Shown here: positions 1 to 12,571 of the stretch, piece after piece
Layout: each line of letters begins with the position of its first letter
Numbering within the stretch: the stretch's first letter is position 1
Assembly: GCA_949297765.1 (NCBI GenBank)
Contig: CASFTV010000005.1
Location: 66,144-130,143 of the forward strand
DNA from: an uncultured bacterium
GTDB taxonomy: Bacteria; Verrucomicrobiota; Lentisphaeria; Victivallales; UBA1829
DNA: 64,000 nt
Direction of reading: 5' to 3'
The notes under the pieces: model-generated
What the model saw: only the letters and a program-made list of their open reading frames with translations
The model's database searches: none
Told to the model about the DNA's origin: nothing
Made by a program: the position numbers and the translations under genes

Positions 1-1210
1 CATAGTTCTGTTCCGCCATTTCGAACTCTTCCGCCTCGACCATCACGCTCAGGGTCGGAACCAGAAGATTCATCGGACAGGCCTTCACGCACCGGGAACA
101 CCGGATGCACGGATTGCCTTCGAACTGTTCCACCTCGTCCGGCGCCATCAGCAGCACGCCCGAGGAGTTCTTCATAATCGGGATGTCGGTGTTCGACTGG
201 GCGAATCCCATCATCGGGCCGCCCATAATCACCTTTGCCGGATTCTCCTTCACGCCGGAACTCAGCTCCAGCAGCCGGGCGATCGGTGTCCCGATCCGGG
301 CCAGATAGTTGGCCGGATCCACCACCGGAGTTCCTGTAACCGTGGTGATGCGTTCAATCAGCGGATGGCCCAGGACCACGGCGTCATGCACGGCGGCCGC
401 GGTTCCGGTGTTCATCACCACGCAGCCGACGTCCATCGGCAGTCCGCCTTCCAGCACCTGGCGGCGGGTCAGCGCGTAGATCAGCTGCTTTTCCGCGCCC
501 TGCGGATATTTCACATGCAGGGGAACCACGCGGATCCTGTATTTTCCGGCGGCCGCGGAGAGTTTTTCAACCGCATCCATTTTGTTGTCCTCCACGCCGA
601 TGAACACGCGGTCGGCCTTGAGGATCTTGGCGGCGATCGCCACACCGGTCAGCACCTCTTCCGTGCGGTCCAGCATCAGACGGTGATCCGCGGTCAGGAA
701 CGGTTCGCACTCCGCGCCGTTGATGATGAGCGTATCAATATTCTTTTCCGGCGGGGGGGAGAGTTTGACATGCGTCGGGAACGCCGCGCCGCCCATGCCG
801 ACAATGCCGGCGTCGAGAATCCGTTTTTTCAGGATCTCCTTCTCGGTATCCGCCCAGTTGGGGATGGGTGCAAGGGAGGTATCCCACTCGTCGGTGCCGT
901 CGGAGAGGATCTCCACCGCCTGTTCGGGCGCACCGGTGACGCCGATGATCTCCACGACATCCCCGACCGTTCCGCAGGCCGGCGAATGGAGCGGGACGGA
1001 CACAAATCCGCCCGGTTCGGCGATTCTCTGTCCTTTTTTAACGACATCGCCTTTCTTGACCGTAAGAGTCGGCGGCGCGCCGATGCTCTGCCGGATCGGC
1101 ACCACATACTTATCGAAAAGCGGAGCAATCCGCAATTCTTTTCCGGAGGTCAGCTCCTTTCCTTCCAGCGGATGGACTCCGCCCTTGAAATTCGCCGTCT
1201 GAGAACTCAT
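1..1210 (-). CDS. rnfC: Rnf electron-transport complex subunit C (RnfC); 3' end cut by window edge
   Basis: Not in the ORF track because the frame runs off position 1. Minus-strand ATG at 1208-1210 forms an ATGA overlap with the rnfB stop. Translation starts MSSQTANFKGGVHPLEGKELTSGKE. In frame further on: DAGIVGMGGAAFPTHVKL (761-814) and the ferredoxin motif GNPCIRCSRCVKACPM (71-118). Confidence 0.9.
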   Translation of the reverse strand, partial: MSSQTANFKGGVHPLEGKELTSGKELRIAPLFDKYVVPIRQSIGAPPTLTVKKGDVVKKGQRIAEPGGFVSVPLHSPACGTVGDVVEIIGVTGAPEQAVEILSDGTDEWDTSLAPIPNWADTEKEILKKRILDAGIVGMGGAAFPTHVKLSPPPEKNIDTLIINGAECEPFLTADHRLMLDRTEEVLTGVAIAAKILKADRVFIGVEDNKMDAVEKLSAAAGKYRIRVVPLHVKYPQGAEKQLIYALTRRQVLEGGLPMDVGCVVMNTGTAAAVHDAVVLGHPLIERITTVTGTPVVDPANYLARIGTPIARLLELSSGVKENPAKVIMGGPMMGFAQSNTDIPIMKNSSGVLLMAPDEVEQFEGNPCIRCSRCVKACPMNLLVPTLSVMVEAEEFEMAEQNY

Positions 1211-2049
1211 GCCGCACCTTCTTTCTTCTTGACGCCGTCCCGCACCGCCTGGAGATGCTGTTCGGGAGTCAGCAGACATTTTCTGGGACACTGCGCCTTC
1301 TCGATCACCGATTCATCCGGCGGATTGGTGTAGACCACCCGGACCATGAATCCCTGGACATTGAATTTATCCGGTTCCGCCTTCACGCATTTGCGGCAGG
1401 CGATGCAGGATCCCGTGCACTTTTTCATGCGCAGCGCGGGTTTTTCCAGCGAGTTGCAGTAGATATGCACCGGTGCCGACGCGGGAACCAGCTTGATCAG
1501 TTTTCTCGGACAGACCTCCGCGCACTGGCCGCATCCGACGCAGATTTCCGGATGCACCACCGCGAGTCCGTCGATGACTTCGATCGCCCCGAACTTGCAG
1601 GCTCTGGCGCAGCTTCCGAAACCGATGCACCCGAAGCGGCAGTCTTTGGCTCCGCCGTTCAGCTGCACAGCGGACCGGCAGTCCAGCACGCCGTTGTACT
1701 TTGCGCCCATCTTGGAGTGGGAGAGTGTTCCGCTGCAAAGCACAACCGCCACCTTCTTCTCGCTCTCCTCGACCTTCTGGCCGAGATATTTCGCGATGCG
1801 GGCCACAGCCTCCGGCGTACAGACCGGACATTTGTTGGCGGGCGCATTGCCTTCGACAATATTTTTTGCCAGATCGGAGCATCCGGCGAATCCGCAACCG
1901 CCGCAGTTTGCCCCGGGGAGCATCCCGGCGACGTCGTCAATCCGCGGATCAAGCTCCACCGCGAACTTCTTCGCGGCAACCGCGATGCAGATTCCGAGCA
2001 CCATGCCCGTGACGGCGACAACAACAATGGAAAGAATGATCGTATCCAT
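1207..2049 (-). CDS. rnfB: Rnf complex subunit B (RnfB), Fe-S protein
   Basis: 280 aa. N-terminal TM helix and the LPGANCGGCGFAGC motif, followed by several 4Fe-4S motifs (CVGCGQCAEVCP, CIACRKCV). Confidence 0.9.
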   Translation of the reverse strand: MDTIILSIVVVAVTGMVLGICIAVAAKKFAVELDPRIDDVAGMLPGANCGGCGFAGCSDLAKNIVEGNAPANKCPVCTPEAVARIAKYLGQKVEESEKKVAVVLCSGTLSHSKMGAKYNGVLDCRSAVQLNGGAKDCRFGCIGFGSCARACKFGAIEVIDGLAVVHPEICVGCGQCAEVCPRKLIKLVPASAPVHIYCNSLEKPALRMKKCTGSCIACRKCVKAEPDKFNVQGFMVRVVYTNPPDESVIEKAQCPRKCLLTPEQHLQAVRDGVKKKEGAA

Positions 2050-2059
2050 GACGCTATCC

Positions 2060-2677
2060 TTATTTTACAAGTCCGGAAAAACCCATGAACGCCATGGCGA
2101 GGATTCCGGCGGTGATCAGCGCGATCGCCGCTCCCTGGAACGGACGGGGAATCTTGGAAATTGCAAGCCGTTCCCGCAGGCTGGCAAACAGAATCACCGC
2201 GATGGCGAATCCGACTCCGGAACAGAAACCGAACACGGTCGACGCCAGAATTCCGCGGTCGCCCTTTGCGTTGAGTTCGGCAGCGCCGAGAACGCAGCAG
2301 TTCGTCGTGATCAGCGGAAGATAGATCCCGAGCGCGGCGTAGAGCGGCGGACTGAACTTCTGCATCACGATCTCCACAATCTGCACCAGCGCCGCGATCA
2401 CCACGATGAACAGAAGCAGCTTTGTGAATCCGATGTCCACATGTTCCAGTCCGAGTGCGGGAATCGAGATCTTCACCTTCAGCAGGCAGTTGTAGAGAAC
2501 CGCCGCGACGAACGATGCAATCGTCATCACGAAGATCAGCGCACCCGACATTCCCAGCGCCGTGGACAGTTTTTTGGACACGCCCAGAAACGGGCAGATC
2601 CCCAGAATTCTCGCTAACACCATGTTGTTCACAAGGATAGCGCCGACCGTGATTACCAACCACTCATTCAAGGACAT
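2060..2677 (-). CDS. rnfA: Rnf complex subunit A (RnfA), polytopic membrane protein
   Basis: MSLNEWLVITVGAILVNNMVLARILGICPFLGVSKK... is typical of the RnfA/NqrE family. Start moved from 2734 (track) to ATG 2677, which is preceded by AAGGAGGAG. Confidence 0.88.
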   Translation of the reverse strand: MSLNEWLVITVGAILVNNMVLARILGICPFLGVSKKLSTALGMSGALIFVMTIASFVAAVLYNCLLKVKISIPALGLEHVDIGFTKLLLFIVVIAALVQIVEIVMQKFSPPLYAALGIYLPLITTNCCVLGAAELNAKGDRGILASTVFGFCSGVGFAIAVILFASLRERLAISKIPRPFQGAAIALITAGILAMAFMGFSGLVK

Positions 2678-2775
2678 TGAAAAACTTCTCCTCCTTACAA
2701 ATTGGAATTGAATGACTCCGGCAAGCCGGAACACCGCCGCGGCAGTCTTCGGGCGTGACGGTGAATCCAGCCTTT

Positions 2776-2804
2776 AATGTAGTCTGTTTTCCTGTGAAAA
2801 TCAA
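2776..2804 (-). promoter_or_regulatory. Candidate sigma70-type promoter of rnfABC
   Basis: Minus strand reads TTGATT (2799-2804), a 17-nt spacer, then TACATT (2776-2781). About 95-nt leader before rnfA. Confidence 0.4.
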
Positions 2805-3003
2805 GCAGTTTCCGGAATTTATTTCCCCTTCCGCCGGCTGTGAAAAATCCCGTTTTCCCCACCTCCGGCGTGTTCCGCCGTCTCCCCGAATTCAAACCGG
2901 AGATCCGCTCCTCCGCAGGAAAACGCGCCGGGATTTTCTTTTCGCAAAAGAGAAAATCTCCGACGCCCTGCCGTTAGAGATTTCACAGCCGGAAAGACCG
3001 GAT

Positions 3004-3026
3004 GAAAAACCGGCCGTTTTCCGGTC
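3004..3026 (-). terminator. Weak candidate intrinsic terminator after the SGNH hydrolase gene
   Basis: Minus strand reads ACCGG-aaaacgg-CCGGT followed by TTTT. The stem is only 5 bp. Confidence 0.25.
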
Positions 3027-3033
3027 TGCCGCA

Positions 3034-3669
3034 TCAGCGGGGAAGAATGAAATCCGCGATCTCTTCCGCGAGTTTCCGGGAACCTTCCTCGTTGAAATGG
3101 ACCCAGTCGCGATGGAGGTGTCCGAGTTCGGCCTCGGCAAACGAATAGAGATCGTTGAAACGGACTCCTTCGGGCTCCAGCACTTTCCGGGCGATGTCGT
3201 TGTACGCGCGGACCTCCGCATTGCTCCGGAAGAGGAAGGAGGGGCACTGATCCTCCAGCACCGGCGTCGAACAGGCGAAAATGATCTCCGCCCGGGGAAA
3301 CAGCGTCCGGATCCGCCGGTAGACGCGGCCGATCAGGTATTCATAAAATGCCGGCGGGGTCAGAGACTCCTTTTCATAGTCGCAGTATCCGGAATGGAGA
3401 ACGTTTTCCGCGGTGGCGGCTTCCGCCTCGCCGGTCGCCCCGATCCCGAGATGGCCGACATCCCAGAGTCCGTTGTTCCAGTGAACCACATCAATTTCAT
3501 CGCCCTTCAGATGGAGCGAGGCTTTCCAGTCCTGAAGCTGGCGGAGGGTGTACTGCAGGAAGCGTCCGTTGTCGTTCGGATAAAAGACCTCCGCCCGTCC
3601 CTCCAGACACTGGCGGACATATTCACCGTATCCCATGCGGATGGAATCACCAAGAAGCAGAATTTTCAT
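3034..3669 (-). CDS. SGNH/GDSL-family hydrolase
   Basis: 211 aa. N-terminal block I MKILLLGDSI (GDS), and a C-terminal DWVHFN block (catalytic D-x-x-H). ATGA overlap with the upstream MBL gene. Confidence 0.8.
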   Translation of the reverse strand: MKILLLGDSIRMGYGEYVRQCLEGRAEVFYPNDNGRFLQYTLRQLQDWKASLHLKGDEIDVVHWNNGLWDVGHLGIGATGEAEAATAENVLHSGYCDYEKESLTPPAFYEYLIGRVYRRIRTLFPRAEIIFACSTPVLEDQCPSFLFRSNAEVRAYNDIARKVLEPEGVRFNDLYSFAEAELGHLHRDWVHFNEEGSRKLAEEIADFILPR

Positions 3670-4520
3670 TTTTCCGTCCCCGTTTCATAAGGAAGGGTCA
3701 TGCCGTCGTAACCGACTTCGATTCCGTCCGGACCGAATTCCCGTTCCAGATCGGCGTGCAGGGCTTTTCCGTTGTGAGAGAAGTGATTGATGACATAGCG
3801 GGTGTTTGAATCGATTGCGCCGATGGAGCGCAGGCGGTCGTGGAACGCTCTCTGCCAGGAGCCGCCCATATGGTGATCGCGCCAGTCGAGAAGAGCGCCG
3901 GTGCAGTCGGCAATGACGATGTCGAACCGGATGTTCGCCTTCTCCAGCCAGGCCCAGGACTCCTCCGGCAGATAGCCGGTGTCGTTGGCGAGGAGGATCC
4001 GGGCCTTCCCGTGGCGGACCGCGAAAACCACCGCCTCGCCGGGAATATGGTAGTGATTGGCCGGGAGCGGACAGAAGGTCATATCCTCCTCCGGCAGCTC
4101 CACCGCCTGGAAGGGAAGGAGCAGATGGAATTTCAGCGTCTCAAGAACAGGGCTGTTCTTTCCGAACGTTGTCCGGATCCGGTTCCACACGGTCGGCCGG
4201 GCGTAGATGTGCAGAGGCACAGCAAAGCCGTGCGAAAAACCGGAATCCCGCATCGACATCGAAAACGTATCCAGATGATCTTCGTGCTCATGCGTGAAAA
4301 AGAGGTGCTTCATCCGAGCGGACCGGAATCCGAAACGCAGTTCCTGCGAATAGGAATCGGGTCCGTAATCGACTCTCACCCGCTCGCTGAACGCATACGC
4401 GGACGTTGTCCGGAAGTCTTTTCCCTTGTTTTCCCATGCGCTCCGGCAGACGGGGCAGTCGCAGAAACGGGCGGGAATTCCCTCTGCGGCGCCGCTTCCC
4501 AGAATGGTCAGAGTTTCCAT
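3666..4520 (-). CDS. MBL-fold metallo-hydrolase (PhnP-like, with N-terminal Cys cluster)
   Basis: METLTILGSGAAEGIPARFCDCPVCRSAWENKG..., THEHEDHLD (HxHxDH). The track ORF extends to 4916, but that part overlaps the divergent gene. ATG 4520 is preceded by GGAAGGAGAAGG. Confidence 0.8.
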   Translation of the reverse strand: METLTILGSGAAEGIPARFCDCPVCRSAWENKGKDFRTTSAYAFSERVRVDYGPDSYSQELRFGFRSARMKHLFFTHEHEDHLDTFSMSMRDSGFSHGFAVPLHIYARPTVWNRIRTTFGKNSPVLETLKFHLLLPFQAVELPEEDMTFCPLPANHYHIPGEAVVFAVRHGKARILLANDTGYLPEESWAWLEKANIRFDIVIADCTGALLDWRDHHMGGSWQRAFHDRLRSIGAIDSNTRYVINHFSHNGKALHADLEREFGPDGIEVGYDGMTLPYETGTEK

Positions 4521-4578
4521 ACCGATCTCACCTTCTCCTTCCTGTTGATGGATTGTATTCGGATGCGATGTTCCGGAT

Positions 4579-4607
4579 ACTATATTCTCCTCCGGCGGAA
4601 AATGCAA
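4579..4607 (-). promoter_or_regulatory. Candidate promoter of the MBL-SGNH operon
   Basis: Minus strand reads TTGCAT (4602-4607), a 17-nt spacer, then TATAGT (4579-4584). Confidence 0.4.
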
Positions 4608-4651
4608 GAAACGGGAAACCGGGAGAAGCGGAAAAAGTTTTCCGGTTTCAT

Positions 4652-4680
4652 TTGCGCAGACCCCTGATCTCCTGTATATT
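4652..4680 (+). promoter_or_regulatory. Candidate promoter of the phosphohexomutase-EamA operon
   Basis: TTGCGC (4652-4657), a 17-nt spacer, then TATATT (4675-4680). AGGAG lies 11 nt before ATG 4717. Confidence 0.35.
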
Positions 4681-4716
4681 ACCTCCGATGCAATCGAAAC
4701 AGGAGACGGCGGAAAA

Positions 4717-6081
4717 ATGAGATTCCTGAGACTGGGGCCTTCCGGGATGCGCGGAGCGGTCGGCTCGGCCCTGACCGGACAGCTTGCGATCAAATACGCC
4801 TCCGCGTTCGGGACCTGGCTCGACGGAGGAACGGTCGGCGTGGCGATTGATACGCGCACCTCGTCGCCGATGTTCAAATCCGCCTGTTTCGCCGGACTGC
4901 TTGCGACGGGATGCAATGTGATTGATTTCGGGATCTGCCCGGCACCCGTACTCCACTTTGCCGTGAAAAAACTGGGACTGGACGGGGGAATGCTGATCGG
5001 AGCGGGACATCATCAGGGAGGCTGGAATGCGATTGTCCCGTTCTCCCGCCGCGGAGCCTGCCTTTCTCCGCTTCAGACGCAGGAGATGCTGGACATTTAT
5101 CACGGAGGAGTCTTCCGTTCCGCCCGCTGGAACCGGACGGGGTCCATCCTGCCCGCGCCGGAAACGATTCCCGGAGATTATGTGGAAGATCTTGCCAGGC
5201 TGGTGAATGTCCGGGAACTTGCGGTGCACCGGTTCCGGGTGGTCACGGATTTCTGCAACGGATCCGGATCGCTTCTCAAACAGCGGATCGCCGACCGCTT
5301 CGGCCTTGACATGGTGCCGATCAACGATCTTCTTTCCGGATCTCTTCCGCATGATCCGGAGCCGCGGCCGCGGAGTTCGGCGCAGGTGAAATCCATCATG
5401 AAACCGCTGCGGGCGGATGCCGGATTCGTCTTCAGCAGCGACGTGGGCCGCGCGGCGATCGTCACCGATACGGGCGAGACGCTGTCGGAGGAATACACGG
5501 TCTCCATTGCGGCGGACAACGTGCTTTCCAAACTGCCGCGCGGCGCGAAAGTCGCCACAAACTGGTGTTCGACCAAAACGCTGGACCTGATCGTGGCGAA
5601 GCACGGCGGGACCATCTGCAAGGGGCCGACCGGAGAAGCCTATACGCTGGAACTGATGCGGGAACAGAACGCCGCACTCGGCGGCGACGGATCGGGAGGG
5701 GTGGCGGTTGCCGCCTCCGGAACCGCCGGATTCGACGGATTTGCGGCGATGCTGCTGATGCTCGAAACGATGGCGCTCCGGAACAGGCGTTCGTCGGAGA
5801 TTGCGGGAGAGCTGCCGCGCTGGCACATCACCAAGATGTCGCTGCCGTGCCGTTCGTTCAAGGCATATTCGGTTCTGCGCGCGCTGCGCGCGCTGTTCCC
5901 CGAAGCGGCGGTCACCGAGGAGGACGGTCTGCGCTTCGACTGGCCGGACGGCTGGATCCATGTGCGCATGTCGATGACCGAGCCGATTCTCCGGATGATC
6001 TCGGAATGGAAAAATCCCGGCGACGGAGTCGGAAAGATCATGCACATCCGGGCGGCGGTGGAGAGGATGATCGCAGAATGA
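4717..6081 (+). CDS. Alpha-D-phosphohexomutase-family paralog with degenerate catalytic motifs (probable pseudoenzyme)
   Basis: 454 aa with full-length similarity to the next gene. The phosphoserine loop reads GAGHHQGGWNA (versus TASHNPAEWNA in the neighbour). The metal loop reads SSDVGR (versus DPDGDR). The phosphate loop RMSMTEP is retained. Confidence 0.8.
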   Translation: MRFLRLGPSGMRGAVGSALTGQLAIKYASAFGTWLDGGTVGVAIDTRTSSPMFKSACFAGLLATGCNVIDFGICPAPVLHFAVKKLGLDGGMLIGAGHHQGGWNAIVPFSRRGACLSPLQTQEMLDIYHGGVFRSARWNRTGSILPAPETIPGDYVEDLARLVNVRELAVHRFRVVTDFCNGSGSLLKQRIADRFGLDMVPINDLLSGSLPHDPEPRPRSSAQVKSIMKPLRADAGFVFSSDVGRAAIVTDTGETLSEEYTVSIAADNVLSKLPRGAKVATNWCSTKTLDLIVAKHGGTICKGPTGEAYTLELMREQNAALGGDGSGGVAVAASGTAGFDGFAAMLLMLETMALRNRRSSEIAGELPRWHITKMSLPCRSFKAYSVLRALRALFPEAAVTEEDGLRFDWPDGWIHVRMSMTEPILRMISEWKNPGDGVGKIMHIRAAVERMIAE

Positions 6082-7466
6082 AGAAAATGCGCAGGAATCT
6101 GAAAATCGGTGTCAGCGGCGTGAGGGGCGTGGTGGGGGAGACTCTCTCGCCCGCGCTGGCGGCGGATTTCGCGGCCTCGTTCGGAGGATTCACGGGACGG
6201 GGAGTGGTCATTGTCGGACGGGACACGCGGCCGAGCGGCGTCATGATGGAAAACGCGGTCGCGGCGGGACTTCTCGCCTCCGGCGCGCATGTGCTTCTGG
6301 CGGGCATTGTTCCGACGCCCACGCTTCAGATTCTGGTCCGGCATTATGACGCGGCAGGCGCGGTCGCCATCACGGCGAGCCACAATCCCGCGGAGTGGAA
6401 TGCGCTCAAATTCATCGACTCCTCCGCATTTTTCCTGACGGAGAGCGGAATGAACGCACTGCTCGACACCTACAATCAGCCGCAGGACGACTTTGTGAAA
6501 GAGTCCGCCTATCGCGGAATCGGCGAAATCCGCGACGCATTCCGCATTCATGCGGAACGGATCCGGCAGGCGGTGGACCGGGAGGCGATCCGGGAAGCTC
6601 ATCTCAAGGTGGCGGTGGACTGCTGCAACGGGGTCGGCGCGCTGTATTCGAGAGAATTTCTGGAATCGCTCGGCTGCGAAGTGGTTACGATTTTCGACGA
6701 GACGGACGGCATTTTCCGCCGAAGTCCGGAACCTGTTGCGGCCAATCTGACCGGACTTGCGGGAACCGTGACGGAACACGCCTGCGACATCGGATTCGCA
6801 CAGGACCCCGACGGCGACCGGATCTCGCTGGTGGACGAACGGGGAAACGCTCTCGGCGAACAGTACTCCATTCTGATCCCGGCGCTCCGGGTTCTGGAAC
6901 GCACACCGGGGCCGGTGGTGGCAAATGTGCAGACGACCAAATCGCTGGGCGATCTCGCCGCCCGTTTTTCCGTTCCAGTGTTTTACTCGAAGGTCGGTGA
7001 AGTGAATGTTGCCGAAGAGATGCGCGTCCGCGGTGCGGTGTTCGGCGCGGAGGGGGGAAGCGGAGGCGTTCTCTGGAGCGGAATCCATCCCTGCCGGGAC
7101 AGTTTTTCCGCAATGGCGCTGACGCTCGAAGCGCTCGCCCTTCACCGGAAACGGGTTTCAGAACTGATGGCGGAGATGCCGCGTTATTCCTCGGCGGTCC
7201 GGAAACTGCCGTGCGGAGCGGAGGAGGCATCCGCGGCTCTGCACGCGCTCGCCCTCCGGTACGAGGAGCGGAAACCGTCGCGGATCGACGGAGTCCGCAT
7301 TGAGTTTGAGGATTCCTGGGTGCTGGTCCGTCCGTCGAACACGGAACCGATGATCCGCATCTACGCGGAATCGGCCCGGGGAATGGAAAACGCCGACGCA
7401 CTGGCGGAAACGTTTCTCCGGGAACTGGAAACGCTCATCGGAGAATCAGCGGGGAATCTGTCATGA
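6078..7466 (+). CDS. Phosphohexomutase (PGM/PMM/GlmM superfamily), motifs intact
   Basis: Start ATG 6078 forms an ATGA overlap with the upstream stop. The track ORF from 5565 is an out-of-context extension. All four family loops are present: ITASHNPAEWNALKF, QDPDGDR, GAEGGSGG, VRPSNTEP. Confidence 0.88.
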   Translation: MKKMRRNLKIGVSGVRGVVGETLSPALAADFAASFGGFTGRGVVIVGRDTRPSGVMMENAVAAGLLASGAHVLLAGIVPTPTLQILVRHYDAAGAVAITASHNPAEWNALKFIDSSAFFLTESGMNALLDTYNQPQDDFVKESAYRGIGEIRDAFRIHAERIRQAVDREAIREAHLKVAVDCCNGVGALYSREFLESLGCEVVTIFDETDGIFRRSPEPVAANLTGLAGTVTEHACDIGFAQDPDGDRISLVDERGNALGEQYSILIPALRVLERTPGPVVANVQTTKSLGDLAARFSVPVFYSKVGEVNVAEEMRVRGAVFGAEGGSGGVLWSGIHPCRDSFSAMALTLEALALHRKRVSELMAEMPRYSSAVRKLPCGAEEASAALHALALRYEERKPSRIDGVRIEFEDSWVLVRPSNTEPMIRIYAESARGMENADALAETFLRELETLIGESAGNLS

Positions 7467-8353
7467 AACTGAAACTTCCGCCTGCCATTCAGGCCGATCT
7501 GATGCTGCTGACCGCAACGATATTGTGGGGCAGTTCGTATCTGTTCATGATTGCCGGACTGCACGATCTGGATGCGTTCAATCTGATTGCGCTGCGGTTC
7601 GGGATCGCATTTCTGCTGGCGGGGGGAGTGTTTGTAAAATCGCTGGCGGCGGGAGGGATGATGCCGTTTCTGACGAGCTGTCTGCCGGGGTTTCTGCTCT
7701 GCGCCGCGTTTGCGGCGGTCTCCTTCGGACTGAAGACGACCTCCGCCTCGAAAGCGGGATTTCTGGTTGGTCTGACCGTGATTTTTGTTCCGGTTCTCTC
7801 CGCGCTGTTCCACCGGAAACTGCCGGGCGTGAAGAGCGCTCTGGCGACGCTGATCGCGTTCGGCGGGATCACTCTTCTGACCTGGAGGGAGGGAATCCGG
7901 ATCGACCGCGGAGCGCTCCTCTGCATGCTTGCCGCACTGCTCTATGCGCTTTACCTGATTCTGAACGGGAGGATCGTGAAAAAAGAGACCGCGCTTCCGT
8001 TCGGGATCTGGCAGTTCGGCTGGTGTTTCGGAGCGGCGCTTCTGTTTTCGATTCTTCTGGAGAAGCCGGAGCTTCCGGCGACGGCGGAAAGCTGGGGAGC
8101 GGTTCTCGCGCTCGGGATTTTCTGCAGTGCGGCGGGATTTCTCCTCCAGACAAAGGCGCAGGTGACCGCATCGCCGACCCATGTGACGATTCTGTTTTCT
8201 CTGGAACCGGTCTTCACTGCGCTGTTCGCCTATCTGTTCAAAGGGGAGATGCTCTCCCGGCGCGGACTGATCGGCGCAGGACTGATCCTTCTGGCGGTTC
8301 TGATCTCCGAATTCACTCCGGAGAAAAAGGCGGAAAAGACGGATCTGAAATAG
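7463..8353 (+). CDS. EamA/DMT-family transporter (10 TM)
   Basis: 296 aa, hydrophobic, with a two-fold EamA-like repeat. ATGA overlap with the mutase stop. Confidence 0.8.
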   Translation: MKLKLPPAIQADLMLLTATILWGSSYLFMIAGLHDLDAFNLIALRFGIAFLLAGGVFVKSLAAGGMMPFLTSCLPGFLLCAAFAAVSFGLKTTSASKAGFLVGLTVIFVPVLSALFHRKLPGVKSALATLIAFGGITLLTWREGIRIDRGALLCMLAALLYALYLILNGRIVKKETALPFGIWQFGWCFGAALLFSILLEKPELPATAESWGAVLALGIFCSAAGFLLQTKAQVTASPTHVTILFSLEPVFTALFAYLFKGEMLSRRGLIGAGLILLAVLISEFTPEKKAEKTDLK

Positions 8354-8401: not shown

Positions 8402-8529
8402 AAAAGAGACTGTGATTACTTTCACAAACTTTCGAAAAAAAAGAAAAATCGTTGCACGGCAGCTTGCAAGATTCCACTTTCGGAAGTAACTTATAGGATG
8501 ATGCAACAAAACAGAAAGGAAGTGCGGTC

Positions 8530-10086
8530 ATGAAAAAAGTTCTTATTCCGACAAAACTCGACAAGGTCGTTTCCGAAATTCTTTCCGCGAAAGGATTCAC
8601 AGTCGTCCAGGACATGGAAACGCCGTTTGCGGATCTTGCGAAGGCCAATGCCGACGCGGAAGCCGTGATCGTCCGGAGCGAAAAGGTCACGCCGGAAATC
8701 ATGGATCTTCTTCCTTCTCTGAAGCTGGTGGTGCGCGCGGGCGCCGGATATGACAATATCGACATCAAATACGCCCGCCGCAAAAACATCGACGTGATGA
8801 ACACCCCGGGCGCCAACTCCAACGCGGTGGCGGAGGAAGTGATCGCGATGATTCTGGCGGCCTACCGGAAACTCATCCCGGCCGACATCTCCACCCGCGC
8901 GGGAAAATGGGAAAAGAAGGCGTTCATGGGCCGCGAACTCACCGGGAAGACGCTCGGAATCATCGGACTGGGGCACATCGGCCGTCTCCTTGCAAAGCGC
9001 GCATCCGGATTTGAGGTGGAAATTCTCGGATTCGATCCGATGATCACCAAGGCGATGGCGGATGAGATCGGCATCACGCTGACCTCCGTGGAAGAGATCT
9101 TCTCGAAGGCCGATGTCATCTCCCTGCACGTTCCTGAAAACGACGCAACCCGCGGAATGGTGAATGAAAAACTCCTTTCCCTCGTGAAAAAAGGCGTCAT
9201 GATCGTGAACTGCGCACGCGCCGGAATCATCAATGAGGACGATCTCCGGAAATTCAAGGCGGAAAAAGGGATTCTCTACTGCAACGATGTCTACAAGAAG
9301 GATGCGGAAGGGGAAAAATCCATTGCGGATGTCGCGGATGTGATGGCTCCGCACCTCGGCGCCAGCACGAAGGAAGCCAACTTTGTCGCGGCAAGACGGG
9401 CTGCGGAACAGACGGTCGCCTATTTTGAAAGCGGCGTCACAACCTGCGTGGTCAACAAGGGAGTGCCGGACGGACTCAACGCCGAATACCAGCATCTTGC
9501 ATCGGCCATCGCCAAACTGGCCAGAGCCGCGCTCGGCAACGAAAAAATCAACCGGATCGAAACGAGCTTCTACGGGAATCTGAGCAAATATGCGAAATGG
9601 ATGACCGCGCCGATCTGCGCCGGCCTGACGAAGGAGTTCGATCCCTACCTCGATTCGAAGGACGCACAGGAGTTTCTGACCTCCCGCGGAGTGGAACTGG
9701 TCAACCGCCAGGTCGACGACGCGAAAAACTACGGAGAGTCGATCACCATTGATCTGGTCTCCGCCACCGGAAGAGTCTCGGTCCGCGGAACCATCGCCGA
9801 AGGACGGATGATGATTTCCAGAGTCAACGATTTCGATCGTCTTTATCTGGATCCGACCGGCATCACGCTCTTCTTCGAATACTCCGATGCGCCCGGAATC
9901 ATTGCGAAACTTTCCGGAAAACTCGGAGAGAAGGGCATCAACATCATTGACATCCGCGCTCCGCAGAACCTCAAGAGCGGAAATTCTCTTGCGGTCATCA
10001 AGATCTGCTCCGACATTTCCGACACCGATCTCAAGGCGATGGCGGAATCGGTCGGCGCGGTGAAGGCGTTCAAATTCAGCGCCTGA
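8530..10086 (+). CDS. serA: D-3-phosphoglycerate dehydrogenase, long form with ASB and ACT domains
   Basis: 518 aa. NAD fold GIIGLGHIGRLLA, 2-hydroxyacid dehydrogenase core, and a C-terminal ACT-like region (LFFEYSDAPGIIAKLSGKLGEKGINI). Confidence 0.9.
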   Translation: MKKVLIPTKLDKVVSEILSAKGFTVVQDMETPFADLAKANADAEAVIVRSEKVTPEIMDLLPSLKLVVRAGAGYDNIDIKYARRKNIDVMNTPGANSNAVAEEVIAMILAAYRKLIPADISTRAGKWEKKAFMGRELTGKTLGIIGLGHIGRLLAKRASGFEVEILGFDPMITKAMADEIGITLTSVEEIFSKADVISLHVPENDATRGMVNEKLLSLVKKGVMIVNCARAGIINEDDLRKFKAEKGILYCNDVYKKDAEGEKSIADVADVMAPHLGASTKEANFVAARRAAEQTVAYFESGVTTCVVNKGVPDGLNAEYQHLASAIAKLARAALGNEKINRIETSFYGNLSKYAKWMTAPICAGLTKEFDPYLDSKDAQEFLTSRGVELVNRQVDDAKNYGESITIDLVSATGRVSVRGTIAEGRMMISRVNDFDRLYLDPTGITLFFEYSDAPGIIAKLSGKLGEKGINIIDIRAPQNLKSGNSLAVIKICSDISDTDLKAMAESVGAVKAFKFSA

Positions 10087-10106
10087 CAGAGCTCCGGTCT
10101 TTGAAA

Positions 10107-10132
10107 GGCTCCGCTTCGACGGAGCCTTTTTT
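10107..10132 (+). terminator. Rho-independent terminator of serA
   Basis: GGCTCCG-cttcga-CGGAGCC followed by TTTTTT. Confidence 0.75.
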
Positions 10133-10156
10133 CTATCTGCGGAAAGGAACGGCGGC

Positions 10157-10669
10157 ATGAAGGATTCTCAAAATCCGGTTCTTCTATCGCTCGGCGGCAA
10201 TCTGGGCGATGTTGCATCGGAGTTTGAACGGGCCACCGCCGAACTGGAACGAAACGGATTCCGGATTCTGAAGCGCTCCCGTCTGTTCCGGAGCAGAGCA
10301 ATGGGATGCGAGGACGGTGCGCCCGATTTTCTGAACTGTTCCATTCTCGGCATCTGGGAAAAGTCTCTCCTCCGGCTGCTGGAGGTGATCCACCGGATCG
10401 AGGTGGAGTGCGGACGGCCCGCCGATCATCCGCACTGGGTTTCCCGGACTCTGGACATCGACATCATCACGGCAGGCACTCTGGAACAGAAAACACCGGA
10501 ACTCACCATTCCGCATCCGGAACTGGCAAACCGCGATTTTGTTCTGATCCCGAGCGCGGAGATCGCACCGGATATGAATATTCCCGGCGTTTCCATGTCG
10601 TTTTCCGAACTCCTGTTGAAAAGGAAGAAGAAAAACGATACCTTAAATAAAAAGGAGACTTCGAAATGA
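10157..10669 (+). CDS. folK: 2-amino-4-hydroxy-6-hydroxymethyldihydropteridine pyrophosphokinase (HPPK)
   Basis: LSLGGNLGD, HWVSRTLDIDII, TIPHPELANRDFVLIP are typical HPPK blocks. Carries a K-rich C-terminal tail. Confidence 0.85.
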   Translation: MKDSQNPVLLSLGGNLGDVASEFERATAELERNGFRILKRSRLFRSRAMGCEDGAPDFLNCSILGIWEKSLLRLLEVIHRIEVECGRPADHPHWVSRTLDIDIITAGTLEQKTPELTIPHPELANRDFVLIPSAEIAPDMNIPGVSMSFSELLLKRKKKNDTLNKKETSK

Positions 10670-11709
10670 ACGATCTGCAGGAAAAGATTCAGGCACTTCT
10701 TGATTCGTTTGTCGAACAGGGGACGGAGTGCGGATGCCAGGCGGCGCTCTACATCAACGGGGAGCTGGCGGTCAGCGCGTATGCTGGATGGACTGACTGG
10801 ACAAAAACAAAAAAAGTCGATGAAAACACGGTCTTTCCGATCTATTCGACCGGGAAGGCAATCGCATCGACCGTGATCCACCGGCTCGTGGAAAAAGGAA
10901 TCCTCGACTACGACATGTACGTCGGCGACGTATGGCCCGAGTACGCCTGCAAAGGCAAGGAAAAGACAAAACTCTGGCACATGCTCGCCTACCGGATGGG
11001 AATGATGAAGGAACCGGACTATGCGACCGACGAGGAAAACGCGGACTGGAAGCTCATGTGTTCCCGTCTTGCGGCGATGACGCCGGCCTATCCGCCGGGC
11101 ACGAAGCAGCAGTATCATCCTCTCACCTACGGATGGCTGATCGGCGAGGTTGCCTGCCGTGCGACGGGCAGGGATTTTGCCACGCTCTGCCGGGAGGAGG
11201 TCTGCCGGCCGGCCGGCATGGACCGCTTCTTCTACGGGATCGCGGAAAACGAGGAGAACGCCGCAACGCTGGTCAAGGCGCCGGACGGACGCTGTTATTC
11301 GGAAGAGGTCATCAACCGGATGAACAAGCCGGTTTTCCGCCGCTGCTGCAATCCGTCGACCTGCACGATGTCGAACGCACGCTCAATCGCGCAGCACTAT
11401 GCGGCACTCGACACCTGCACGCTGCTGAAAAAGGAGACGATCGACAACGCAACGATCCTCCGGCGGGCGGAAAACGACATGATCCCCATCGAACCGGGAC
11501 GCTGGGAACTGTTCGGGCTCGGCTACGTTCTTTCCGGACCGAAAGACGATCTCGGCCGCATCTTCGGCCACGGCGGCGTCGGCGGCTCGGAAGGGCTTCT
11601 CGACCGGAAGCAGCACTTTGCGATCGGCTACACCCGCAATCTGTTCGCCGATCCGAACGGGCGGAACGAGTTCCTGAAGATCATCGGGCTGAAAAACCGT
11701 GACTGGTGA
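10666..11709 (+). CDS. Serine hydrolase, beta-lactamase/transpeptidase-like family
   Basis: 347 aa. S-x-x-K motif (YSTGKAIAST) at the expected N-terminal position. ATGA overlap with folK. Confidence 0.75.
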   Translation: MNDLQEKIQALLDSFVEQGTECGCQAALYINGELAVSAYAGWTDWTKTKKVDENTVFPIYSTGKAIASTVIHRLVEKGILDYDMYVGDVWPEYACKGKEKTKLWHMLAYRMGMMKEPDYATDEENADWKLMCSRLAAMTPAYPPGTKQQYHPLTYGWLIGEVACRATGRDFATLCREEVCRPAGMDRFFYGIAENEENAATLVKAPDGRCYSEEVINRMNKPVFRRCCNPSTCTMSNARSIAQHYAALDTCTLLKKETIDNATILRRAENDMIPIEPGRWELFGLGYVLSGPKDDLGRIFGHGGVGGSEGLLDRKQHFAIGYTRNLFADPNGRNEFLKIIGLKNRDW

Positions 11710-11722
11710 GAACAGTCCGGCC

Positions 11723-12571
11723 TTACCGCCGGATGATAAAGTAGTCCATCAGGGAAAGCATCAGCAGAAAAATCGGGGCGTTGAGGATCAGGCTGTCGAC
11801 GAGGTCCATCACGCCGCCGATTCCCGGAATCAGTTTTCCGGAATCCTTGACTCCGCAGATCCGTTTCAGCGACGACTCCGCCAGATCTCCCGCTGCGCCG
11901 AACAGGAAGAGCAGGACACCGGGAATCAGGGCAAAAACAAGCGGAAAACCGGTCACACGGGGAAACAGCGCAACGGAGAACGCAATGGAGAGAAGCAGTC
12001 CCCCGATGAATCCCTCCCAGGACTTTCCCGGACTGATCGACGGAATCAGCTTATGATTTCCGCCCTTTGTTATCTTATTGGAAAGCGAACCGACCACGTA
12101 AGCGCCGATATCGCCGATTTTCGTTCCGACCACAAAGAATCCGAACAGCAGCCGGTCCTCGCGGTACAGCGCCGCCAGGAACAGGAACGGCAGCACAAAC
12201 AGAAAGAAAACCGCCGCGGAATTCATCACCTTCTGCAGCACCTCAAGCCGGTTCCCGGAGCAGAGCAGCTGAATCCATAGACAGATGCAGAAAAACGCCA
12301 CAATCCCGACCACGAACAGGGGCATCATCAGGAGATTGATCTCCGCATACAGCACTCCCAGCACCGGCAGAAGAACCGCCAGAGCGGTCCAGAGCGGATA
12401 GGCCGGCAGATTGACCTTTGCACTCATCCGGCAGAATTCCTGCACGGCGATTCCTGTTCCGGCAACGGCGAGGAAGGTGAAGCAGAGCAATCCGCCGAGA
12501 CCATTCAGAAAAATGGATGCGGCGAACAATCCGAGCAGAACGATGGAACTGCAGAGTCGTTGTAAAAACAT
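11723..12571 (-). CDS. cdsA: Phosphatidate cytidylyltransferase (CDP-diglyceride synthase)
   Basis: 282 aa polytopic protein. C-terminal signature SSLKRICGVKDSGKLIPGIGGVMDLVDS; it deviates from the usual PGHGGxxDRxD at the His and Arg positions. Classic uppS-cdsA pairing. Confidence 0.8.
   Translation of the reverse strand: MFLQRLCSSIVLLGLFAASIFLNGLGGLLCFTFLAVAGTGIAVQEFCRMSAKVNLPAYPLWTALAVLLPVLGVLYAEINLLMMPLFVVGIVAFFCICLWIQLLCSGNRLEVLQKVMNSAAVFFLFVLPFLFLAALYREDRLLFGFFVVGTKIGDIGAYVVGSLSNKITKGGNHKLIPSISPGKSWEGFIGGLLLSIAFSVALFPRVTGFPLVFALIPGVLLFLFGAAGDLAESSLKRICGVKDSGKLIPGIGGVMDLVDSLILNAPIFLLMLSLMDYFIIRR

Follow-up and report, generated by a model that had tools for sequence, protein, structure and literature searches.

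The window analysed here is a 64,000-nt stretch of contig CASFTV010000005.1 (positions 66,144 to 130,143 of the forward strand; GenBank assembly GCA_949297765.1) from an uncultured bacterium of the order Victivallales. It contains two tandem genes, which we call G1 and G2, whose products fall within the alpha-D-phosphohexomutase superfamily, followed by a gene (G3) for an EamA/DMT transporter. G2 has the motifs of an intact archaeal-type enzyme, but in G1 the phosphoserine and the catalytic lysine are gone, as are two of three metal ligands, while most of the substrate-holding residues are kept. The losses are conserved among G1 orthologues, purifying selection acts on both genes, and G1 is consistently encoded beside a G2 orthologue. 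With moderate confidence, we therefore read G1 as a subunit that binds ligand, is unable to transfer phosphate and would act as the partner of catalytic G2.

Active-site residues

Loop assignment used four alignment methods: BLASTP, phmmer against PDB chains (1wqa, 9du5, 2f7l, 9ix8 and Pseudomonas aeruginosa PMM/PGM, 4il8), hmmscan and MAFFT. The best PDB sequence matches were archaeal-type phosphohexomutases (E-values from 1e-55 to 2e-38), and the motif regions of the G1 alignments are gap-free. Residue equivalences (Table 1) use P. aeruginosa PMM/PGM numbering.

Table 1. Active-site positions of P. aeruginosa PMM/PGM and their equivalents in G1
PMM/PGM	G1	State in G1
R20	R12	kept
S108	G97	lost (phosphoserine)
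H109	H98	kept
N110	H99	changed
K118	V107	lost (catalytic Lys)
D242	S240	lost
D244	D242	kept
D246	G244	lost
R247	R245	kept
E325	D324	conservative change
S327	S326	kept
H329	G328	lost
R421	R417	kept
S423	S419	kept
N424	M420	lost
T425	T421	kept

Judged by these equivalences, the residues that carry or transfer the phosphoryl group are gone from G1, and the substrate-holding residues are for the most part still present. G1 is predicted to be unable to form a phospho-enzyme or to bind Mg2+ in the canonical way. The preliminary description of this stretch had reported a serine-to-glycine change in the phosphoserine loop (GAGHHQ, for TASHNP in G2) and the loss of two of three aspartates from the metal loop (SSDVGR, for DxDxDR), and alignments to solved structures agree on both points. 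It had also called the sugar- and phosphate-binding loops kept, which is true in part: the acidic residue and serine of the former and the arginine, serine and threonine of the latter are there, but aspartate stands in for glutamate, the histidine is absent and the asparagine is lost. To its list of losses we add that of the catalytic lysine, replaced by Val107 in G1 (WNAIV, for WNALK in G2). As had been described, G2 has all four family loops (TASHNP, DPDGDR, GAEGGSGG and RPSNTEP).

A register shift in the alignments could in principle rescue the G1 loops, but this was rejected: all four methods agree, there are no gaps nearby, and no serine or threonine lies within 3 residues. Neither a displaced Ser/Thr nor a displaced Asp triad was found in the alignments.

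G1 belongs to the superfamily both by homology and by its four-domain fold. In Pfam it matches PGM_PMM_I, II and III (E-values of 9e-25, 1e-12 and 5e-17), with PGM_PMM_IV aligning at 17.3 bits, under the cutoff of 23.1; G2 matches all four domains. The two proteins are 31% identical (BLASTP, E-value 3e-54). The AF2 model of G1 is confident (pLDDT 91.9, pTM 0.92) and, over its full length, Foldseek gives TM values of 0.86–0.90 to 9du5, 1wqa, 2f7l and 9ix8. For both proteins the best NCBIfam model is TIGR03990 (Arch_GlmM), an equivalog with a cutoff of 439 bits, which G2 passes (449.8 bits) and G1 fails (332.3 bits). NCBI names the G2 orthologues ‘phosphoglucosamine mutase’. By its residues, G1 fails the definition of a catalytic phosphohexomutase: both phosphoserine and a canonical metal site are missing, and the catalytic lysine is gone, with the two catalytic arginines (R12 and R245) retained.

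Conservation and selection

A protein search for relatives of G1 returned 281 proteins, and among the best 120 of these (44–100% identical), the serine position is Gly in 115, Gln in 3, Ala in 2 and Ser in none. A separate genome scan, with one genome per species, gave 80 G1 loci. Most carry the labels Lentisphaeria, Victivallales or Lentisphaerales, and a few are from metagenome-assembled genomes (MAGs) labelled Kiritimatiellae or Verrucomicrobiota. The orthologue residue counts below come from these genome-scan loci, with denominators of 78–80 for G1 and 73 for G2.

The losses seen in the window recur throughout. At the serine position, 79 G1 orthologues have Gly (75), Ala (2), Gln (1) or Thr (1) and never Ser, while Ser is present in 73/73 G2 orthologues. 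The catalytic lysine is found in 0/79 G1 orthologues versus 72/73 for G2. In the metal loop of G1 orthologues, the first Asp is present in 1/80, the central Asp in 80/80 and the third in 0/80; all 73 G2 orthologues have all three.

The ligand contacts made by Arg, His, Asp and Thr hardly vary. The R247-equivalent Arg is present in 80/80 G1 orthologues, the R20-equivalent (R12) in 74/78 and the H109-equivalent His in 79/79. The sugar loop has Asp or Glu in 80/80 and Ser in 71/80, and in the phosphate loop the R421 and T425 equivalents occur in 79/79 and 78/79, respectively. The substrate phosphate is bound by domain IV, whose conservation is higher in G1 (0.64) than in G2 (0.54).

One lineage of orthologues, comprising Lentisphaerae bacterium WC36 (CP085689.1; L079:6001-7374) and P0243, carries Thr where the nucleophile would be (GATHH); its metal loop is still degenerate, reading SSDMSR or NSDMSR. 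If that threonine is taken as a sign of an alternative phospho-acceptor, G1 might be a weak mutase, and the Ser108Ala mutant of P. aeruginosa PMM/PGM is reported to keep a few percent of activity. We consider this very unlikely, because the position is Gly, rather than Ala or Thr, in 75/79 orthologues, two Mg2+ ligands and the lysine are also missing, and the neighbouring gene encodes an intact enzyme.

The preliminary description took the open, full-length G1 frame as an argument against a decaying pseudogene, and the comparative data bear this out. Using the Nei–Gojobori method (NG86) on ten close relatives (45 pairs), dN/dS is 0.03–0.17 for G1 and 0.05–0.18 for G2, with the G1 value at or below that of G2 in most pairwise comparisons. 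Over 64 species (2016 species pairs), mean p-distance is 0.483 for G1 and 0.480 for G2 (r = 0.89), i.e., the two genes have diverged equally. G1 is thus under purifying selection comparable to that on intact G2, and its losses are fixed in the 79–80 orthologues counted. The G1 frame is open in 79/80 species, and the sole split copy (L068) is in a MAG. A pseudogene that is still open by chance would account for the lost catalytic residues, but with the frame intact in nearly every species, such low dN/dS, a rate equal to that of G2 and a confident AF2 model, we reject this explanation, giving it a negligible probability.

Some tblastn matches are split across frames, namely the G2 orthologues at L004:7362-8649, L056, L063 and L073 and the G1 orthologue at L068:6001-7321. 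All lie on MAG contigs, and the splits are probably assembly/frameshift errors rather than true pseudogenes.

Pairing of G1 with G2

In the window, the G1/G2 and G2/EamA junctions read ...CAGAATGAAG... and ...GTCATGAAAC..., respectively. Both are ATGA overlaps, so the tandem arrangement of two full-length mutase genes and an EamA gene is as first described. The pair is conserved well beyond this genome: a G2 orthologue lies directly 3' of G1 on the same strand in 74/74 assessable loci. The other 6 of the 80 loci end at a contig edge and are outside this count, though in 2 of them the start of G2 is still visible as its first residues. Spacing is tight, with 45 of the 74 loci having a 4-nt overlap, 7 more overlapping by 1–11 nt and 8 having gaps of 2–9 nt, so the genes are within 9 nt of each other in 60/74. 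A reverse check, starting from G2-side matches, again found a G1-type gene upstream. The preliminary description had favoured a non-catalytic partner role for G1, and this adjacency fits that proposal.

The transporter gene is another matter. It had been suggested that its coupling to the mutases hints at a dedicated sugar-phosphate or nucleotide-sugar route, for which one can cite the ATGA overlap of G2 and EamA in the window and the presence of EamA after the pair in L004–L006, the closest three relatives (G1 identity of at least 87%). However, no other locus has EamA there, not even in relatives with 76–82% G1 identity, and in L006 it does not overlap G2. The G3 protein matches Pfam EamA in two stretches (E-value 3.6e-35), but its scores stay below cutoff for every specific transporter family in NCBIfam. 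A dedicated three-gene route is accordingly highly improbable, and with no conserved synteny behind it the suggestion falls away. EamA is a recent, lineage-specific neighbour outside the conserved module, and the conserved unit is the G1–G2 pair, not the G1–G2–EamA trio.

Around the Lentisphaerota pair, no further conserved synteny was found, and flanking genes vary. The sole recurrent neighbour there is a HAD-IB hydrolase of ~220 aa (TIGR01490), directly 3' of the pair in 12 loci and accounting for 12/110 flanking open reading frames (ORFs). The TIGR01490 family is related to SerB and histidinol-phosphatase, and it is conceivable that the neighbour is linked to sugar-phosphate or phosphoserine turnover.

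Relatives outside Lentisphaerota

Degenerate paralogues elsewhere were sought by running a profile against 1.84 billion cluster representatives and by a separate word-indexed search. Together these found hundreds of phosphohexomutase paralogues with the Ser-to-Gly change (including P0391–P0508, L092, L093, L094 and the P0428 contig). The commonest form outside Lentisphaerota, TAGHN...WNALK...DADGER, has the Ser-to-Gly change but retains the lysine and metal site; examples come from MAGs labelled Acidobacteria, Blastocatellia, Pyrinomonadaceae and Armatimonadota. A second form, [ST]AGHN...WNAL[TA]...NSDVSR, occurs in, e.g., an Aminicenantes MAG.

Pairing extends to these relatives. Of seven wider-family proteins with readable surroundings, six (P0252, P0287, P0261, P0433, P0475 and P0428) are encoded directly upstream of an intact paralogue, and the intact partners have TASHNP, D-x-D-A-D-R, GGEGNGGV and R-x-SNTEP. 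For P0250, a variant that retains the serine, the contig edge falls just inside an adjoining gene with a mutase-like N-terminus. Some of the non-Lentisphaerota loci also carry amino-sugar genes (GH20, GH3, YdjC, polysaccharide deacetylase and NagB-like), which do not recur in Lentisphaerota; this is a suggestive context that would fit a hexosamine substrate.

G1 is 35–42% identical to the foreign upstream proteins, 31% identical to G2 and 28–32% identical to stand-alone relatives, and by pairwise scores G2 groups with the downstream proteins of the wider family. These scores support an old split for G1 and are ambiguous for the mildly degenerate forms. As far as sequences can tell, the serine-less family is large and old, and it reaches past Lentisphaerota. 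We tentatively suggest an old duplication followed by stepwise erosion, in which the serine went first and the lysine and two aspartates later.

The less derived relatives also bear on whether G1 might be a neofunctionalised enzyme that runs some other chemistry in its cleft, e.g., as a sugar-bisphosphate hydrolase/phosphatase or through a reaction at His98/His99. The TAGHN/WNALK/DADGER proteins miss only the serine, with a complete metal site and lysine; cleft residues in G1 are strongly constrained; and the G1 family has invariant residues of its own (such as an LPHDPEPRP motif with His212, Cys180, Cys284 and Lys302). All of this would suit a new enzyme. But G1 itself is without two of three metal ligands and the lysine, the second His (H99) varies among orthologues (His in 56, Gln in 20, Asn in 3), no chemistry is known for such a site, and the obligate pairing with an intact mutase would be left unexplained. 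On balance, we find this explanation unlikely.

Proposed role of G1 as a partner of G2

The mechanism we propose is as follows. G1 would be a pseudo-mutase that parted long ago from its paralogue G2, an archaeal-type phosphohexomutase, and the translationally coupled operon would yield both proteins in a fixed ratio. The two would most likely assemble as a hetero-oligomer in which G2 does the mutase reaction, probably converting glucosamine 6-phosphate to glucosamine 1-phosphate and/or acting on glucose or mannose phosphates. The G1 cleft would bind a sugar phosphate without turning it over, with Arg12, His98, Asp242, Arg245, the acid and Ser of the sugar loop, Arg417 and Thr421 as the residues proposed to hold the ligand. 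This cleft could be regulatory or could be a holder of the sugar-1,6-bisphosphate activator.

The closest solved relatives, T. kodakarensis (Thermococcus kodakarensis) PGM (9du5) and PPM (9ix8), are D2 homotetramers (PMC11940775, PMC11641776), so a paralogue could plausibly substitute for like subunits. We favour a ligand-binding role over that of a pure scaffold because a scaffold would not need the retained cleft residues.

As for the ligand, the dephospho-enzyme of phosphohexomutases binds the 1,6-bisphosphate intermediate/activator. The serine-less cleft of G1 resembles a dephospho-enzyme, so G1 may hold bisphosphate, and it could thereby hold or sense the compound that keeps G2 phosphorylated. 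The engineered Ser108 mutants of P. aeruginosa PMM/PGM are relevant here: these include S108A (1k2y) and S108D, crystallised with glucose 1,6-bisphosphate bound (2fkm). Going by the title of 2fkm, a cleft without the serine can still hold the bisphosphate intermediate, and the idea builds on this. Those mutants are laboratory-made and have an intact metal site and lysine, whereas G1 is from a natural, old lineage which has lost these too. Extended to all serine-less paralogues (GAGHH in Lentisphaerota, TAGHN elsewhere), the idea would make them subunits that serve as receptors of the sugar-1,6-bisphosphate activator; this is speculative and, in our estimation, fairly unlikely.

Several observations count against a G1–G2 complex with a simple division of labour. 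Positions equivalent to the polar interface of T. kodakarensis PGM have a conservation of 0.53–0.54 in G1, versus 0.66 overall, so the archaeal interfaces may not be reused. No natural G1–G2 fusion was found among the matches listed. The seventh wider-family protein, from an Acidobacteria MAG, has its intact paralogue 4.2 kb off on the same strand. In a neighbour-joining tree, upstream and downstream proteins form two clades, a topology in line with a single origin of the degenerate clade, but deep support is weak, with bootstrap values of 34, 18 and 7 of 100. The substrate assigned to G2 is itself putative. Finally, in ruminant-gut Lentisphaeria whose G1 is ~60% identical to that of the window (L014–L016 and L085), G2 is degenerate too: its motifs read GISSIRG, TASQHP, DPDGDS, GAEG--GSV and RKSYS[GE]S, i.e., it retains the serine and Asp triad but no longer has the His109 and Arg247 equivalents or the phosphate loop. 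The G2 frame is full-length in these genomes, and the partner G1 retains R-x-SRTEP. These genomes are hard to reconcile with a simple model in which one subunit is catalytic and the other regulatory.

Some of these observations would suit a free-standing G1, i.e., a sugar-phosphate-binding protein (sensor, buffer or carrier) that is co-expressed with G2 without forming a stable complex. Interface-contact positions that are not especially conserved and the one locus with separated genes both lean that way, as does the conservation of ligand-contact residues in a protein that has lost its transfer residues. However, near-universal adjacency with coupling (the 4-nt overlap in 45/74 loci) suggests matched stoichiometry, which is typical of subunits, and Pfam finds no DNA-binding or signalling domain in G1. 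We rate a free-standing binder as fairly unlikely and prefer the reading of G1 as a subunit that partners G2.

Locus features

Upstream of G1, the genes run on the minus strand (Table 2), which makes G1 the first gene of its transcription unit. Four long plus-strand ORFs at 365-4667 were considered as operon members and rejected: they have no Pfam matches and look spurious, the true genes there being on the minus strand. A Shine-Dalgarno box (AGGAGA) lies at 4701-4706, 10 nt 5' of the G1 ATG. A promoter scan found no match to the sigma-70 consensus in 4521-4716, upstream of G1. A terminator scan gave terminator-like matches within the genes, which we dismissed as consensus noise.

A 176-nt gap with a promoter-like site at 8421-8449 lies 3' of G3. 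From the serA-like gene onward, the block at 8530-12280 shares synteny with L004 only. No Rfam family reached its gathering threshold across the whole window, and no phosphohexomutase genes besides G1 and G2 were found within it.

Table 2. Coordinates of G1, G2, their motifs and neighbouring features in the window, and of selected genes at orthologous loci
Feature	Locus	Position	Strand	Remarks
G1	window	4717-6081	+	454 aa; serine-less, metal-site-degenerate paralogue of archaeal-type alpha-D-phosphohexomutase
G2	window	6078-7466	+	462 aa; intact archaeal-type phosphohexomutase; ATG overlaps G1 stop (ATGA)
G3, EamA/DMT transporter gene	window	7463-8353	+	296 aa; ATGA overlap with G2
G1 loop GAGHHQ	window	4999-5016	+	TASHNP in G2
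G1 WNAIV	window	5023-5037	+	WNALK in G2
G1 metal loop SSDVGR	window	5434-5451	+	only central Asp242 and Arg245 remain
G1 sugar-binding loop GGDGSGG	window	5680-5700	+	acidic residue and Ser kept
G1 phosphate-binding loop RMSMTEP	window	5965-5985	+	Arg, Ser and Thr kept; Asn lost
G2 loop TASHNP	window	6372-6389	+	
G2 metal loop DPDGDR	window	6804-6821	+	
G2 WNALK, GAEGGSGG, RPSNTEP	window		+	
RnfB-like Fe-S protein gene	window	1207-2049	-	upstream of G1
Rnf-Nqr membrane subunit gene	window	2060-2734	-	upstream of G1
GDSL hydrolase gene	window	3034-3669	-	upstream of G1
Metallo-beta-lactamase (MBL)-fold protein gene	window	3666-4520	-	Lactamase_B_2 match; ATG at 4520 preceded by AAGGAG
Divergent intergenic region, MBL-fold gene/G1	window	4521-4716	.	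196 nt; presumed promoter region of G1-G2-EamA operon
serA-like D-3-phosphoglycerate dehydrogenase gene	window	8530-10086		ACT domain; downstream of G3
HPPK gene	window	10157-10669		after serA-like gene
Serine beta-lactamase-family gene	window	10666-11709		after HPPK gene
HAD-IB hydrolase gene (example)	L045	8740-9396		directly 3' of pair
HAD-IB hydrolase gene (example)	L066	8766-9431		directly 3' of pair
HAD-IB hydrolase gene (example)	L054	5569-6228		directly 3' of pair
HAD-IB hydrolase gene (example)	L040	8969-9652		directly 3' of pair
Degenerate G2 orthologue	L014	7064-8434		ruminant-gut Lentisphaeria
Degenerate G2 orthologue	L015	6177-7544		ruminant-gut Lentisphaeria
Degenerate G2 orthologue	L016	3658-5025		ruminant-gut Lentisphaeria
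Degenerate G2 orthologue	L085	6001-7371		ruminant-gut Lentisphaeria

Relation to known systems and implications

Alpha-D-phosphohexomutases are textbook enzymes, described as homo-oligomeric or monomeric and as having a phosphoserine that does not vary. The archaeal-type enzymes (Pyrococcus horikoshii PH0923 PMM/PGM, 1wqa; T. kodakarensis PGM, 9du5, and PPM, 9ix8; Sulfolobus tokodaii ST0242, 2f7l) have the same four-domain fold as G1. They differ in that the solved enzymes are homo-oligomers from single genes, while G1 is without the phosphoserine, the lysine and two aspartates. Our full-text literature search, which many subscription papers lay outside, turned up no phosphohexomutase described as serine-less or heteromeric. 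The only inactive member it found reported is PGM5 (aciculin), a vertebrate protein in which TASH is strictly kept and conserved active-site residues are shared (PMC5570346). PGM5 thus retains the serine, whereas G1 has lost the catalytic residues themselves; moreover, PGM5 is a eukaryotic cytoskeletal protein, and no active partner is encoded alongside it. G1 is likely a pseudoenzyme partner, in complex with G2 if our reading holds, in a superfamily without a described example in the literature found.

Non-catalytic paralogous subunits are familiar from other families, such as GlgD with GlgC in Firmicutes, the large subunit of plant ADP-glucose pyrophosphorylase, and the alpha subunit of PPi-phosphofructokinase. 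Like G1, GlgD-type subunits are degenerate paralogues that are co-encoded with a catalytic one and retained under selection. They serve regulatory or stabilising roles in a hetero-oligomer, and their folds and reactions are unrelated to those of G1, for which the complex with G2 is only inferred. Another parallel is the trypanosomatid prozyme, a dead paralogue that activates AdoMetDC (PMC5201418). It is, as proposed for G1, a catalytically dead partner of an active enzyme. Prozyme differs in being eukaryotic, in having another fold and in lacking operon coupling, and any activation by G1 is hypothetical.

What is new here is a widespread bacterial lineage without the nucleophile, in which the ligand-binding cleft is kept and which is encoded with an intact paralogue. 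If our reading is true, there would be an extra regulatory or cofactor-handling layer on the supply of hexose/hexosamine-1-phosphate for envelope polysaccharides. There is also a practical consequence for annotation. In NCBI records, the TAGHN forms go by the name ‘phosphoglucosamine mutase’ despite the absent nucleophile, and metabolic reconstructions may therefore count a non-enzyme, possibly affecting those of Acidobacteriota, Aminicenantes, Armatimonadota and Lentisphaerota.

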